Assembly: GCF_048593235.1 (NCBI RefSeq)
Contig: NC_133620.1
Location: forward strand, 439,981,261-440,045,260
Source of the DNA: Sminthopsis crassicaudata
Taxonomy: Eukaryota
Direction of reading: 5' to 3'
DNA length: 64,000 nt
Shown here: positions 8,476 through 21,039 of the stretch, piece after piece
Numbering within the stretch: the stretch's first letter is position 1
Layout of the letters: every line of letters begins with the position of its first letter
Program-made: the position numbers and the translations under genes
The notes under the pieces: model-generated
What the model saw: only the letters and a program-made list of their open reading frames with translations
The model's database searches: none
Told to the model about the DNA's origin: nothing

Positions 8476-9819
8476 ACCTCTGTGAGAAGAAAGGGCATAC
8501 CCTTTATGTTTGCTATGGATAATTAAAAAACCCTTTTTTATTCAGTCAATTTGGGGTATTCTTGGCAAAGATATTGGAGTACTTTGCCATTTTCTTCTCT
8601 AGCTCACTTTACAGATAAGGAAACTGAGTCAAACTGACTTGCCCAGGTAAGTATTTGAGGTCCAATTTGAACTCAGTAAGATGATTCTTCCTGACTAAGG
8701 TGTAGCCCTGTATAATACAGGCATAGTACAGCTATGTAGCTGTTCAATAAATTTATAAGTTTGACTGAAAGTAAAACCAATCCCCTTTCAATGCCCTCAA
8801 TCAATTGTAATGACTAAGATAGACATTTGTCTCCTAACCACTAGAGAATCCAAAGTAGAAAAACAATGAATCAAAGAGAGCCTTCTAAAGATAGGCCATC
8901 TGAGGTATTGGGGAATTGTCACATAAATTCTTTCCCAGGAACAGCCTCTGCTTTGTATGGACATAGGGCCACACAGGCTCAGAGAAAGTTTGCACCCAAG
9001 AGAATAAAATAGAAATAAAGGGAGGAAGGGGGTGCAAAGATATGCCTTATCTTAATTAAGAATTGGCTGTTGTGAGCATGGATCCTTATTGTGCCACTTA
9101 ATTAGAGAGATCCAAGGACATGTAGAAATGCATGTTATTGAAGCAGATAAAGTGCTGAACTTGTAGTCAGAAAGAGCTGAATTTGAACTGAATTTGAATT
9201 CAACACTAAGTGTGTGAGCTGGGACAAGTCACTTCACTTGCTTCATTCTCTATTTTCTCACCTGTAAAATGGAGATAATATTATCTATTTCATAAGGATG
9301 TTATGACGATCAAATATAATATAAAGCATTTTATATACTTTAAAGCACTGTATAAATGCTAGCTAATGGTCTTCTTATTATTATCTCTACTGCTGTACTG
9401 GAAGGAAATGCATTGTGGGTTGAGTTTTATTTTTTAATAAAAAATGTCACCTGTGCCCACTTAGCTTCGGCTTTCCTATTTATTTAGTAGAATGAGGCAT
9501 TCTGAATCCAATAGAAGTAGCCACTGGTGCTTATTATCCTCATTGCTGCCAGCAAGTGTGATCTATCAAGATGATTAGGAGGAGAAAAAGTCATCCCTGA
9601 ACATCCTGGTGTACAGGGCACCTCTATCCTATTCCACTTACTGTTGTGTTGTGAGCTACACATTTATTGAAACCAGCTGTGAAGAAGGATATGCAACTAC
9701 AGTCTCTGCAGCCAGGATCATCAGAATCTATTTTCTTATGTGTGTGTGTATGTATGTGTGCCTCCTAATTATCATCACCCCAAACCAAAGAAGAAAATGA
9801 TAAAATGTGGGCAGAGATT

Positions 9820-10190
9820 AAATTTTATTTATACTCTTTTTTTTGCATTATTTGCATAATCATCAGTTTTCAAAGATGATGATAATTACCTCTTCCAAAT
9901 GGCCTGTCCCTCTTCCAAAACAGAATTCTCCAACAAAGAAATCCTCCATCACAACAAAGAAGTACAAGTAAGAAAAACAAATCAATACCTTGGTCTTCTC
10001 TGTCAAAATCTATTCCTTCCCACCCACAACTTCTCTGCAGAGAGGATTCACTATTGGGCCAGTGGAATCATGATTGAATTTACATTGCCTGTTTCACAAT
10101 GGTTCTTTTTTTTACTCTGTATCAGTTCATACAGTTCTCACTTTTCCATGACTCTTTAATATTTTTCTATTTCTTACAAATGTATTTTGT
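9820..10190 (-). mobile_element. Old L1 3' fragment
   Basis: Diverged marsupial L1 3'UTR-like sequence starting with a T-rich tail. Confidence 0.55.
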
Positions 10191-10440
10191 TTTTCATTAA
10201 AGTAACACCTCTAGGTGATCTCTCACCTCTAAGTCCAGCCTTTTCCCCTGTCTTGCTCCCCTACTTAATAAACTCCAGTGGTTTCCAATTGATGTAATGG
10301 GACTTTCTGTCTCCCTGATCTTTGGTGGGGAGGTGAATATGGGTTAGAATCTCAACCTCTTCTGGCCTTTGGGAGGAGCCCCATCCTCCTGTTTATAGGG
10401 GGAAACTCCCAAATGGTAATCTCCACAACAATTCAATTGG

Positions 10441-11299
10441 AAATGTTGGAGGGGATGTGGGAAAACAGGGACACTGATACATTGTTGGTGGAGTTGTGAA
10501 TACATCCAGCCATTTTGGAGAACAATTTGGAACTATGCTCAAAAAGTTCTCAAACTGTGCATACCCTTTGACCCAGCAGTGTTGCTACTGGGCTTATATC
10601 CCAAAGAGATTTTAAAGAAGGGAAAGGGACCTGTATGTGCAAAAATGTTTGTGGCAGCCTTCTTGTAGTGGCCAGAAACTGGAAACTGAGTGGATGCCCA
10701 TCTGTTGGAGAATGGCTGAATAAATTGTGGTATATGAATGTTATGGAATATTATTGTTCTGTAAGAAATGATCAGCAGGATGATTTCAGAAAGGCCTGGA
10801 GACTTACATGAACTGATGCTGAGTGAAATTAGTACGACCAGGAGATCGTTGTATACTTCAACAACAATATTACATGATGATCAATTCTGATGGAGGAGGC
10901 CATTTTCAACAATGAGATGAACCAAATCAGTTCCAATAGAGCAGTAATGAACTGAACCAGCTACACCCAGAGAAAGAACTCTGGGAGATGATTAGGAACC
11001 ACTACATAGAATTCCTAATCCCTCTAATTTTGTCCATCTGCATTTTGGATTTCCTTCACAGGCTAATTGAACACTATTTCAAAGTCCGATTCGTTTTGTA
11101 CAACAAAACAAGTGTTTGGACATGTATACATATATTGTATTTAACTTATACTTTAATATATTTAACATGTATTGGTCAACCTGCCATCTGGGGGGGGGAA
11201 GGAGGGGAAAAATTAGAACAAAAGGTTTGTCAATTGTCAATGTTGTAAAATTACCCATGCATATATCTGGTAAATAAAAACTATTAAAATGTTAAAAAA
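10441..11299 (+). mobile_element. L1 3' fragment (about 860 bp) with TSD
   Basis: ORF2 end plus 3'UTR and A tail. aattcaattgg(a) at 10430-10441 and 11300-11311. Confidence 0.95.
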
Positions 11300-11441
11300 A
11301 ATTCAATTGGAGATCTTGGTGTGGGGCATAATCACCACCCTCAAATTGCTCCCCAGCTCCAGGCCACAAAAACCCAATATAACCAAAGCCTGTACCCCCA
11401 TCTCTGCTAAAGATTCTAACAGGATTTTGCCCACTGATGAA

Positions 11442-11934
11442 TGTAATGTTCTCTTTGGTTTTCTGGTGGTCTCTTGGGCAGCCTTCATTTCAGTTCAGTA
11501 ATCACCACAAGAATAGCCAGGTGTTAAAATCCAAATCCTTTATTATCTCCTTGCTGCCTGATGCTGGTCAGCTTTCTGGAAAGCCTTTCAGTCTTGCCTT
11601 GGTTTCAGTGGAGAAATGCAGGAGGAGAGCCTGCCATCAGGAGCCCGACTGAAGATGGAAATGAAATTCTCTCTCCTTCTCTCTGAGAGCTTAAGCTCCT
11701 GCCTTCAGTTCTCTTGTCTTCTCTGCCTCTGAATCTGACTGCATTTGTCCGAGCTTATGTGCTCTTATCATAAGTGTGAATCTTGTGGAATTATATTAAG
11801 TACTAAGTACATGTACTGAAGTAGAGAACTATGAAGCACCATGCTAAACTAGATAAGCATTGTCTTTATCAATTCCACTGACTTAACAACTTGTAAGAAT
11901 CTTTGTTCCAAGTTCAGAGTTCTGGCCCATAACA
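11442..11934 (-). mobile_element. Solo LTR, probably betaretrovirus-like (ERV2)
   Basis: TG...CA termini, perfect 6-bp TSD GATGAA (11436-11441 and 11935-11940), AATAAA on the minus strand at 11539-11544, length 493 bp. Confidence 0.92.
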
Positions 11935-12069
11935 GATGAAAAAAATGTCTTCTCAGTATAATAAACCCAATTTTGCACAAACCTGGCCTTTAGAGATTGT
12001 GAATTCTTTCGCAAAATCTGTGACACCTACCAGGGGATCTCTTGCCCTCATTTCTCACACCTCAATATT

Positions 12070-12108
12070 TAGTGGCCCAGATGGGGATCTAACCGGCAAC
12101 CTTGGCGT
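12070..12108 (-). other. 39-nt copy of the 3' half of mature tRNA-Ile(AAT), including CCA (extended PBS)
   Basis: tagtggcccagatggggatctaaccggcaaccttggcgt versus the reverse complement of mammalian tRNA-Ile(AAT) recalled from memory, TGGTGGCCCGTACGGGGATCGAACCCGCGACCTTGGCGT: 32/39 identical, with 5 of the 7 mismatches at CpG positions. Confidence 0.88.
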
Positions 12109-14989
12109 GCCTCCAGGATCAAATGCAAAATCCTCTATTTGGTACACAAAGTCTTTCATAATGTACCTCTCACCTCCTCCAGTCTTCTCACACCTCAGGA
12201 ATATGGATATCCTTCTCTACCTCTATCCTCCATGGAGTCCTCCCTGATCTCCTCAGCTGCTAATGCATTCCCCACCTATGTATATATTTTACATATTTCT
12301 ATACATGTACATGCCATGTTCTTAAAGGAATTTAAATTACTTGAGAAAGGGGGTGGTTTTATTTTCATCTACTTATTTCTAGTGCCTAGCACATAAAAAA
12401 ATACTTAATAAGTACTTACTGATTGATTGATTGATTCCTCCTTCAGTAATTGAGGAAATGAAGAGAGAGGAATGATGTTACTAAAATTTTTTTTAAAATG
12501 GAGGGAAAGAAAAAAGTAAGCTGTGAGTTTCACTGAGGTTATTTGATTTAAGTGAAGGGAGTGGGATTTGGGAGGGAAGTTGGTGATGGGGGAAATAAAA
12601 AAAAATTTGGAGTAATTATGTGGAAAACAAGTTTTGAATGCAGTGAATTTTTCTGACAAATCAGATTTAAGATCTGAATCAGCCAATTTCCCCCAGGTCC
12701 AAATTTTCCTTCTTTAAAACCAAATAAAAGATTTCATATTTGTTCCTAATTTAAAATTGTCCTACTTTCAAAAGCCTTTGGACTTATTTATAAAATAAAA
12801 CTTATCAGTTTTTCTCTAATTATAATCCACAAAATGTCCTGAACTGGAATATCTCTAGCCATTTTTATCAAAAGCCTAACTAGTTTCCAATGCACCCCTA
12901 GGATCCTCTTTCCTGATTGGTCTCAGAAGGACTCTTCCCATAAGTGATTGGGGTAAGTTATCAGACTAAGAGAAAGAAGAAATCTTTGGTGACTTCACTT
13001 AATGGAACTGATAAGGTATTAGGGGTTGAACCTCCCAAAAATTGGGATTTAGGGCTAATGTCACTAGATGTCTCAAAAGAATTTGTAGGCTTAGACCATC
13101 CCCAAATCAAGAGGCAAAGATTTTATTTTGCTATTGGCAGTAGACTAAACTCCAAAAGGGAGTTTAGTGATTAACCCTGGAGAAAGGTGAGAGCTAAATT
13201 CCACTTGTCATTAACAATTGTGAAGACCTAAAGAACTTGCCAATGTAACTTAGTAAGGAGAGTAAGTTCCTAAAAGGAGTTATTGAAGAAGTTCTTTTAT
13301 AAGACAAAAATAACCTCAGGGATTGATATATGTAGCTTGGCTTCTGATTGGATGCAGTGACAGTGGGATCATAATTTTTTCAAAGCAAGGGATTCAATGA
13401 GGGCAGAGTGCAACAAAGGCCCACTTAAGGACAAAAAAGGGCCCACTTAAGAACAAAATAATCCTGTCAATATCTCTGTTTGCTTCAGAGAATAGTTGGC
13501 TTCTCATCTATATATTCAGACCTTCTCCTGGTAATGTCTTTCTCAATGGGCTACATAACTACCAAGGGCCTGGGACCTTTTTGCTGGGGTCTTATTTGTC
13601 TCATCAGAAACATTTATCTTTGATCTCCTGGAAAGAAAAAAAAATATTTAAAGAGAATGATTTACGTGGAATAAATAGTTTTAGTACTATAATTCTCCAG
13701 AGGTATGCTGAAAGTTGTCATTTAATCTGTTTCCTTCAGTTCCTTCAACAATAACATGGAAATAACAGCATCCACTTTTCCATGACTGTTGTGAAGACAA
13801 AAAGAGATAATGTTTGCAAAAATGTTTAATTTAGTGACTTGCAAATAGGTCCTTTATTAATTTATTTTTCTTGTAGGCATCAAGTTCTCTTGTATTCAGA
13901 GAAGCTAGTCTTAGTTTTGTCTGAGGCAACATCCATTTATTGATTGATTAGGTAAGAAATGAAGCAGAGAATGGCCTTTTTTACCTAATCAAAAAAAATG
14001 AATCTGAAGAAGATCCCCATGGTTTCTGGCCAAGAAAGAAACATTCTGAACCATCAGAGCCCAAACTATGACCCAAAAAGGCTTAGTATGGAACCTATTG
14101 TTAGCCAATCAATGAAAGCCATAGTAATCTGGGTTTAAAGCATGACACTTAAAAAAGAAATTTAGCTCCCAAACTCCAAGACCTTGGGTATTTCTCAGGC
14201 TTAGAAAGGTCAAGGTCTCCCACTACATCCAGGGCCATCTCCAATCTTTCTGACCCAAAATACCACTGGACCCAAATAGCTCTGGAGGAGAAAGTGAAGC
14301 TGATGACTTTGCACAGTTCTGACTTTCTTAAAAGCTTGCAAGTCCTGACATCACCTTCTCAAAATTATGATCTCCTTAGAGAATGAAGGACAAACAATAG
14401 CTAGCCAGTGTCTTTAGGCTGAAATATATATATATATATATATTTTTTTTTTGAACCATATTACTCAGTCACTGAAGTCTATGTCCTTATGAGAGATGTC
14501 TCTCCCCTCCCAGGAATTTCCCATGCTTTAAACTGAAAAATCCCTATTAAATTCTCAGTTGGGAATATGCTGCTCTCAACCTCATTTCAAAAGAACTCTG
14601 TTGCAGAAACTCCATAAAGTCTGATCCCTTACTCTGTTTTGGAGGACCCAACATGCTTTATGTCTGTTACACAAATGAATATAAGCAAACACAAAAGCTA
14701 AGCCTGAGGCTAGACCATGATCTACCTTCTCACTAACCACATTTTCAGGCTTTCATATGGATATGTCCCTGAAAAGCCTTCTCAGGCTTAGAACCCACTC
14801 TATTTATCTTTAACATACATAATAAACATTACTGGACCTGGTGGTCACCTCAGCCCACTCTCTTTTATCTAGATAAAAGACTTGTATGCTGATGGATTGA
14901 TCCATTGTGGTGGGGAATATGGAATCCCTTTCTCACATCATGTTTTCTCAGAATCAATTAAGGATATTAGATTAGTATAAAGTGAATTT

Positions 14990-19385: not shown

Positions 19386-20271
19386 CCTGTCAGATTAGCT
19401 AGAATGAGAATGTTGGAGAGGATGTGGGAAAACAGGGATACTGATACATTGTTGGTGGAATTGTGAATACATCCAGCCATTCTGGAGAGCAATTTGGAAC
19501 TATGCTCAAAAAGTTATCAAACTGGGCATACCCTTTGACCCAGCAGTGCTACTACTGGGCTTATATCCCAAAGAGATTTTAAAGAAGGGAAAGGGACCTG
19601 TATGTGCAAGAATGTTTGTGGCAGCCCTCTTTGTGGTGGCCAGAAACTGGAAACTACATGGATGCCCATCTGTTGGAGAATGGCTGAATAAATTGTGGTA
19701 TATGAATGTTATGGAATATTATTGTTCTGTAAGAAATGATCAGCAGGATGATTTCAGAAAGGCTGGAGAGACTGACATGAACTGATGCTGAGTGAAATGA
19801 GCAGGACCAGGAGATCATTATATACTTCAACAACAATACTGTATGATGATCAATTCTAATGAACGTGACTCTCTTCAACAATGAGATGAACCAAATCAGT
19901 TCCAGTAGAGCAGTAATGAACTGAACCAGCTACACCCAGCGAAAGAACTCTGGGAGATGACTATGAACCACTACATAGAACTCCCAATACCCCTAATTTT
20001 GTCAGCCTGCACTTTGGATTTCCTTCACAGGCTAATTGTACACTATTTCAAAGTCCGATTCTTTTTGTACAGCAAAACAACTGTTTGGACATGTATAAAT
20101 ATATTGTATTTAATTTATACTGTAACATATTTAACATGTATTGGTCAACCTGCCATCTGGAGGGGAAGGGGGAAGGAGGGGGAAAATTAGAACAAAAGGT
20201 TTGGCAATTGTCAATGTTGTAAAATTACTCATGCATATATCTGGTAAATAAAAACTATTAAAATTAAAAAA
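19386..20271 (+). mobile_element. L1 3' fragment (about 885 bp) with 16-bp TSD
   Basis: aataactaatgttgaa at 19370-19385 and 20272-20287. ORF2 C-terminal translation LLLGLYPKEILKKGKGPVCARMFVAALF. Confidence 0.96.
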
Positions 20272-21039
20272 AATAACTAATGTTGAAGGACCCTTCAGTC
20301 TAGACCGTGTAACCGATCTATAAAGGGCAAGGCCTTTGTTCAAGGACCTTGTCTCATTCTATATTTTGTATGGTTGCTAATTCTTGACTAGAAGGGATTA
20401 GTTAAAATGCCAAGGAAAGACATTATACCACTACAGCAATTGCTACCTAATGTTTTGCTTAGATAGAGTAAGAAATCATTTATAATATTCAACTATAACA
20501 CTTCATTTGTCTACACCAAACATACCTTTTTATTAAATGTTGATTTATATCTTCTGTTCCTCTTTTTAGTCACATTGTGTATTACTACTTTCTCCCTTCT
20601 TCCCATCTACACACATGTTTAGCCTCCCCTTTATCCTTACTTGCTCAGTGGGAGAATGTCACAATGGGGCATGAAGAAATTATGTTCTGGTTGTAATAAC
20701 TTTATGATTTGATGTTGAGAGTACTGTATACTTGTGTTAGACCATGTTAGCAATGAAGCTAAAATTCAACTGAATGTGACAGCTTACAAGGTATTAGAAG
20801 AAGCTCCATCATCTTTACAAGGACCAAGGAGATTTACATATGTGTTCCACATGTGAATCATGACTGAAACCCTAACTCAGAAATGAATGCTTTTATTTGC
20901 TTCTATCAGAGGATTAGCAAGACAAGAGGAATTGATTACTGTATTCTAATAACAGTACTGACAACACAAAGCATGCACTTTGTGATCATCATGCACAGGT
21001 GATATCAGAGCTAGAAGAGACCTTTAGGATCATCTGGAC

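Follow-up and report, generated by a model that had tools for sequence, protein, structure and literature searches.

A long terminal repeat joined to half a tRNA-Ile in Sminthopsis crassicaudata: a candidate over-extended reverse-transcription product and its genomic siblings

How does a retroviral long terminal repeat (LTR) come to stand alone in a genome with half of a transfer RNA (tRNA) copied onto its end? This question is raised by positions 10290–12108 of a 64,000-nucleotide (nt) stretch of Sminthopsis crassicaudata DNA (contig NC_133620.1, positions 439,981,261–440,045,260; the whole stretch is called the window), where the LTR of an endogenous retrovirus (ERV) is followed by TT and then by 38–39 nt complementary to mature tRNA-Ile(AAT) with its CCA. 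We consider it fairly probable, though well short of established, that the insert is a plus-strand strong-stop DNA, extended too far along its primer, which was inserted into the germ line in a single step, with integrase making the join at U3 and host end-joining the one on the tRNA side. In structure it has the parts of such a product, namely a U3 start, a whole U3-R-U5, the spacer and a long CCA-bearing primer copy. The host repeat at both flanks is presumably L2. The features are as follows (TSD, target-site duplication).

10210–10289, + strand: host L2-type repeat, left part (start approximate; from repeat alignment, in the same register in loose contig ends)
10290–10440, + strand: LTR, 5′ part of U3, with an exact terminal TG (from family starts and collinearity); 10430–10440, within it, is the first TSD copy of the poly-A insert
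10441–11310, + strand: later insert, the 3′ end of a poly-A retroelement plus the second TSD copy
11311–11441, + strand: LTR, middle part, with a TATA-like motif (collinear with family LTRs)
11442–11940, + strand: later insert, a solo LTR of another family (TG..CA, 11442–11934; from sequence)
11941–12067, + strand: LTR, 3′ part, with AATAAA at 11960–11965, R-U5 and a terminal CA decayed to TA (12066–12067)
12068–12069, + strand: TT spacer, the unprocessed U5 dinucleotide (identical spacer in proviral copies)
12070–12108, − strand (tRNA sense): copy of mature tRNA-Ile(AAT), from CCA76 to position 39/38
12108–12230, + strand: host L2-type repeat, right part (end approximate; 39 repeat matches in the genome)

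We first consider the LTR itself. The original prediction had described an LTR split by two later inserts, with TG, TATA and AATAAA signals and a CA end decayed to TA, and this description held, as the three pieces, compared one by one, were collinear with natural LTRs of the family. It had also placed an extra A before the terminal TG; that A is LTR sequence instead, the family LTRs beginning with the same 8 bases as 10290–10297, so that the LTR begins at 10290 with its exact TG. The 3′ piece had 40 scored family matches, mostly with the same CA end, at 74–86% identity. The repeated copies of the family have TG..CA termini, AATAAA and common ends, and proviral copies carry a primer site, with matches to retroviral genes in a few internal segments. 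The TSD of the family, as seen in solo copies, is 4 bp long and was perfect (4/4) in 10 of 28 loci.

Compared with the genome's own tRNA-Ile(AAT) gene plus CCA, positions 12070–12108 matched at 32 of 39 places, with mismatches at tRNA positions 75, 67, 66, 64, 56, 51 and 48, so that the 39-nt complement first proposed is borne out. A motif search of the same genome retrieved 13 identical tRNA-Ile(AAT) genes and the window itself. The first 20 nt of the copy are the native primer site of the family, since in normal proviral copies CA and TT are followed by a primer site of 20 nt, which extends over positions 58 and 57, and the leader begins after it. The remainder is read-through: past the native site the window matched the tRNA at 15 of 18 places (binomial P ~1e-6), while in 32 normal proviral leaders the 18 nt after the primer site matched it in register at only 0–6 places. 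The extension is therefore not native to the family; a native extension would have refuted the original prediction. As to a mature, modified template, the CCA is present in the window, and signatures of inosine at position 34 (I34) and of position 58 are present in siblings only.

A similar picture would arise if the family carried the extension natively, or if a solo LTR happened to adjoin a tRNA gene or a fragment of a tRNA-derived short interspersed element. A tRNA-Ile gene cluster does lie about 1 Mb away, old tRNA-Ile-like repeats are present in the genome, and the leaders show a partial, shifted complementarity to tRNA positions 53–40. We nevertheless regard this explanation as very improbable, because the CCA complement stands in exact primer-site register after CA-TT, because CCA is absent from the genes and from the 15 old copies examined, and because of the poor in-register match of the normal leaders. 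The cluster holds 9 tRNA-Ile(AAT) genes at G000:C4:440.97-441.10 Mb; it was rejected as the source, its genes being without CCA. The leader complementarity to positions 53–40, with three loop bases skipped, averaged 8.2/14 against 4.3 in the control (32 leaders, which are related copies and not independent) and was seen, for example, in L046, L050, L064 and L080; an extended primer contact is possible. ARAGORN reported no tRNA on the window and Rfam found nothing credible in 9000–13500, the half-tRNA being too short and decayed for either.

At the host junction, 29 repeat copies were examined, of which 22 had an aligned left flank; in 17 of these the left flank, ending at 10289, abuts the right flank from 12108 with gap 0. 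This bears out the continuous host L2 of the original prediction, and the loss of host sequence on the right that might have spoken against it was not found, as judged from these repeat copies. The lack of a 4-bp TSD was also confirmed, as the expected CAAT has no right-hand copy. At 12108, one T serves both as the last matching base of the tRNA copy and as the start of the continuing L2. The copy can therefore be counted as 38 nt (end at position 39) or 39 nt (end at 38), and the predicted end at tRNA nt 38 is possible but ambiguous. A solo LTR made by LTR–LTR recombination likewise consists of one complete LTR without internal genes, but a true one ends in CA and keeps its TSD, and we rejected a canonical solo LTR here on the TT and 38–39-nt tRNA copy after the LTR and the unrepeated CAAT. 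A processed pseudogene made by L1 was rejected as well, the insert starting at U3 and lacking both a tail and a TSD. An organism A contig shows 0 differences over 12036–12139. In the related organisms B and C, one contig each covers 12030–12330, differing at 12 and 16 places, and carries the same junction at ~4–5% divergence. The junction is therefore old and not an assembly artefact. No empty allele was found in the contigs compared over the whole locus, a comparison swamped by repeats.

Is the window alone in carrying such a junction? Junction and motif searches identified 10 LTR junctions with extended tRNA-Ile copies, including the window, in several LTR families, with 0 matches in the backwards-pattern controls. 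The copies end at about positions 52, 48, 47, 43 (uncertain), 39/38, 36, 35, 32, 31 and 27, and none passes position 26 (G26). In L063 the tRNA copy is followed by a re-copied LTR piece ending in CA, with a TSD of 4/4; in L096 by a second LTR, head to head, also with 4/4; and in L071 and L082 by an LTR or a U3 start in inverted orientation (3/4). L061 and L053 switch to internal sequence and have a 3′ LTR (TSD weak), and L106 has a re-copied U5 end. Only the window, L047 and L095 have apparent host sequence after the copy, and the right flank of L047 is single-copy, which places it outside the repeat-based empty-site comparison. In most siblings, the stuck 3′ end may instead have moved on to another template (an LTR end, internal sequence or an inverted U3), by which a CA end would have been restored and a normal TSD allowed. 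Two loci have further peculiarities. In L181 (G000:C3:10097200-10097950) the Ile copy ends at 27, one base before G26, and an inverted full LTR follows; its last five bases are those of the tRNA's own 3′ end, which could prime on the primer site. In L182 (G000:C1:85907470-85908020) a filler of ~550 bp joins two head-to-head LTR-primer ends, all within one 4-bp TSD.

A second and larger set was obtained with tRNA-Lys(CTT). A motif taken from the genome's own gene gave 234 genomic matches at ≤2 mismatches, including some true genes, and 0 in the control. We examined 100 Lys loci (the first 70 of those with T opposite position 58 and the first 30 of those with another base there) and found CA 1–3 nt before the copy in 95 of them. 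These loci (L223–L322, genome G000) have beta-type LTRs followed by 35–76 nt of CCA-bearing antisense tRNA-Lys(CTT), and the whole tRNA, to position 1, was copied in 38 of 100. An LTR start was called in 65 loci and in none of the other 35. Of these 65, 9 have a restored LTR end followed by a 6-bp TSD with at least 5/6 bases matching, indicating that integrase acts on read-through products. Direct TSDs at the tRNA end were seen in 3/65, with no excess over shuffles (mean 2.2, max 7). An automatic class of LTR ends without TSD was too permissive, as it took a match of 8 of 10 within 1.4 kb, and was not used. One independent locus, L316, resembles the window insert: it has an LTR with a canonical start, a whole tRNA-Lys and no TSD, with gap 0 in 17 of 19 repeat copies.

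With L316 in hand, another explanation of the window can be weighed, namely that a rescued right end was integrated normally with a CAAT duplication and that a later deletion took both the rescued end and the second CAAT. Rescued forms do exist, some with only 19–41 nt from the tRNA copy to the TSD (L063, L239, L311 and L312), as do deleted proviruses with an extended primer site (L053 and L061), and the end at 38/39 would then become a deletion breakpoint. However, such a deletion would need to stop exactly at the last TSD base to leave gap 0, L316 would require the identical coincidence, and the junction is unchanged in organisms B and C. We therefore consider a later deletion improbable.

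Several Lys loci add observations of their own. In L231, L233, L244, L245, L248, L262, L286 and L294, a whole or nearly whole tRNA-Lys(CTT) copy is followed by a second primer site and leader, with the jump mostly via a short U5 end. The second site presumably belongs to another lysine tRNA type, and these loci may be recombinants between co-packaged ERV families. The whole-tRNA copies of L259, L265, L272, L309 and L318 run into one common internal sequence; opposite position 58 they carry C, A, A, T and T, a pattern that suggests a recurrent jump site and not one lineage. In L305 the copy is followed by ~48 nt that we take to resemble antisense 18S ribosomal RNA, although an Rfam scan reported no ribosomal RNA there. 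A polypurine tract precedes the tRNA-bearing LTR in L292 and L315, in which the 3′ LTR has thus kept the read-through copy. Nine of the 62 incomplete Lys copies end at position 11, adjoining G10, and paired changes at positions 29 and 41 mark a second isodecoder as primer.

We then asked what the copies record of the modified tRNA. Opposite position 58, the Lys copies carry T in 90, A in 22, C in 13 and G in 0 cases, so that 35 of 125 (28%) are misread, far above background (P ~4e-24 against 3%). Other positions, CpG and isodecoder sites aside, show 0–3 changes per ~80 copies, and position 37 is unchanged in 85/85. The misreads are spread over several LTR clusters with differing right ends and are for this reason mostly independent; the exceptions are L268 and L281, with common flanks, and L266 and L267, which form one head-to-head pair. 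Judged from these sequences, the misreading likely reflects read-through of a modified A58, similar to 1-methyladenosine (m1A), and RNA-sense C is almost missing, in keeping with the m1A-G signature (PMC4787781). At position 34, C was found in all three LTR-adjacent Ile copies that span it in register, as against T in 13/13 genes and C in 2/28 other tRNA-Ile-like copies (Fisher P = 0.002). On this sequence evidence, we read the C as the copying of I34 on a mature tRNA template.

The ends of the copies also differ between the two primers. All 6 clearly long Ile copies end at 27–39, as against 3 of the 100 Lys copies that end at 27 or above (at 39, 33 and 31; P = 5e-8). Position 26 is G in the Ile gene and A in the Lys gene, and N2,N2-dimethylguanosine there (m2,2G26) is described as blocking reverse transcriptase in human tRNAs (PMC11139479); on these grounds, a block at m2,2G26 is the likely cause of the Ile ends. 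A difference between the two reverse transcriptases is also compatible with the data. The original prediction had instead assumed a specific stop at N6-threonylcarbamoyladenosine 37 (t6A37), and this was not supported: the window's end is ambiguous, 5 of the 6 long Ile copies read past 37, and the end at 38/39 is unremarkable among copies ending at 27–39. As a class, t6A37-terminated products were rejected, with ends at 38 in 1/10 Ile and 0/100 Lys copies; we take t6A37 to be present on both tRNAs. The proposed fossil record of tRNA modification accordingly survives at the population level (m1A58 misreading, I34 and probably m2,2G26) rather than through t6A37.

How, then, might the window insert have arisen? 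That this is a U3-R-U5-tRNA product of reverse transcription past position 58 of a mature primer, as first proposed, is supported by the non-native extension and the lack of host loss. Plus-strand synthesis would have copied U3-R-U5, the TT and the primer without stopping at 58, as the preserved structure indicates. The over-long 3′ end, which mismatches the leader, would have failed in the second strand transfer, a failure known from the HIV-1 (human immunodeficiency virus type 1) literature. The U3 end lost AA and was joined at the exact TG, presumably by integrase; upstream of one 3′ LTR of the family (L186) lies a purine tract with AA at its end, and the window insert starts at TG without this AA. 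A one-ended join would nick one host strand, and replication through the nick could give a break exactly at the join. The tRNA-bearing end may then have been end-joined to this break via the 1-nt T overlap, with neither TSD nor loss. As for the end at 38/39, a pause at t6A37, which we think doubtful, or trimming to the T overlap may explain it. The element is a dead by-product with no shown function.

The same over-extended DNA might instead have been captured at a blunt chromosome break, both ends being end-joined without integrase strand transfer. The absent TSD, the absence of host loss and the 1–2 nt T/TG overlap at the joints agree with this, and micro-homologies are described at abnormal retroviral junctions (PMC2797772). 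The insert nevertheless starts at the exact processed TG without AA, in 76/100 Lys loci the canonical LTR start is intact and the dinucleotide before it varies, and many siblings have TSDs of family length. Ligation into a break without integrase, as originally predicted, thus keeps the missing TSD on its side and is weakened by the exact, processed U3 end and by the sibling TSDs; we rate break capture at both ends as unlikely, though it deserves to be taken seriously.

Several points weigh against our reading of integrase at U3 and end-joining at the tRNA end, or against the modification record. The TG of the LTR equals the next two bases of the host, so that the left joint may be a 2-nt microhomology and two-end break capture keeps its place; the AA might also have been lost during end-joining, with no strand transfer by integrase. 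Zero-gap cases number only two (the window and L316); a testable gap was available in 2 of 76 Lys loci, one being L316 and the other showing a 21-bp overlap. The TSDs of L053, L106, L047 and L095 are weak or unsettled. No outgroup empty site was seen, as the insert is present in both organisms B and C, and the zero host loss is for this reason judged from repeat paralogues. The tRNA copy in the window reads 58 correctly, as T, and ends before it reaches 34, so that it bears no modification signature of its own. The Ile copies are misread at 58 in 1/10 cases, none as A, although the m1A-U context predicts A (PMC4787781). Finally, products of this length are described as unable to transfer or integrate (PMC8599865, PMC13191261).

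In HIV-1, minor over-extended products end at 55, 54, 37 or the tRNA 5′ end (PMC13191261, PMC8599865), and those labelled P1 and P3–P5 (Fig. 3B of PMC13191261) have the same composition of U3-R-U5 plus tRNA past 58. From cell-free and cell-culture work, however, they are described as dead ends incapable of transfer or integration, whereas here they are fixed in the germ line in at least two ERV groups and the 37/38 stop is rare. Sakurai et al. 2009 (PMC2797772) describe one HIV-1 provirus whose 5′ junction is intact, whose 3′ junction holds the dinucleotide and sequence of the primer site, and which lacks a short repeat; the junctions in their study are like those here in their intact U3, abnormal U5, micro-homology and short or absent TSD. 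They belong to full vector proviruses in repair-deficient cells with ≤15 nt of primer-site sequence, unlike the window with its lone LTR and 38–39 nt of tRNA and the siblings with up to 76 nt. The 20-nt primer site of our family, which covers 58 and 57, resembles what in lentiviruses and spumaviruses is called the primer over-extension sequence (Muthuswami 2002, cited in PMC13191261). There, over-extension amounts to a few native leader bases; the further 18–19 nt of the window are absent from the family leader.

We found no genomic class of LTR-tRNA read-through fossils in the literature searched, whose coverage mostly leaves out older and subscription journals. Genomic LTR-tRNA fusions were likely described earlier, in papers of 1982–1991. 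Reilly et al. 1982 reportedly found a CCA-bearing mouse tRNA-Phe pseudogene, Colicelli and Goff 1986 are said to have found tRNA between the LTRs of circular DNA, and Pulsinelli and Temin 1991 reportedly obtained deleted proviruses from plus-strand transfer errors, which L053 and L061 look like. In these cases, tRNA or other cellular sequence was reportedly copied beside an LTR during reverse transcription, as here, in single clones or loci.

About 100 such products have become fixed in this one genome, and many of them have normal TSDs, indicating that integrase and host repair rescue them in vivo. We would call it an even question whether primer read-through is a common, overlooked ERV route for antisense tRNA copies, whole tRNAs included, into mammalian germ lines (>100 loci here), with integrase accepting these supposed dead ends and an in vivo record of modification left behind (m1A58 28%, I34, m2,2G26 block). 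If so, the copies, which hold a sequence-level modification signature from the ancient germ line, would also record how each ancient reverse transcriptase handled tRNA modifications, and the modifications that stop retroviral reverse transcriptase in vivo would become countable from assemblies. LTR-tRNA fusions also give rise to CCA-bearing tRNA pseudogenes, by which counts of tRNA genes can be inflated. Taken singly, the locus in the window is a modest case, and the value lies in the class.

With regard to the ERV family, no reverse-transcriptase segment was found in the six proviral loci scanned. A zinc knuckle (E 4.7e-5) and a weak TLV_coat envelope (env) match (E 1.2e-4, below the cut-off) were detected in 2 of the 16 internal segments scanned. 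The 4-bp TSD and the weak gammaretrovirus-type env match suggest that the family is a class I ERV. Of the two later inserts that split the LTR, the nested solo LTR has a 6-bp TSD (11436–11441 and 11935–11940). The body of the poly-A insert (10441–11299) is followed by its second TSD copy (11300–11310), an 11-bp direct repeat; this insert, which we take to be of L1 type, is 92% like window positions 19409–20274 and is matched at many further genomic loci.
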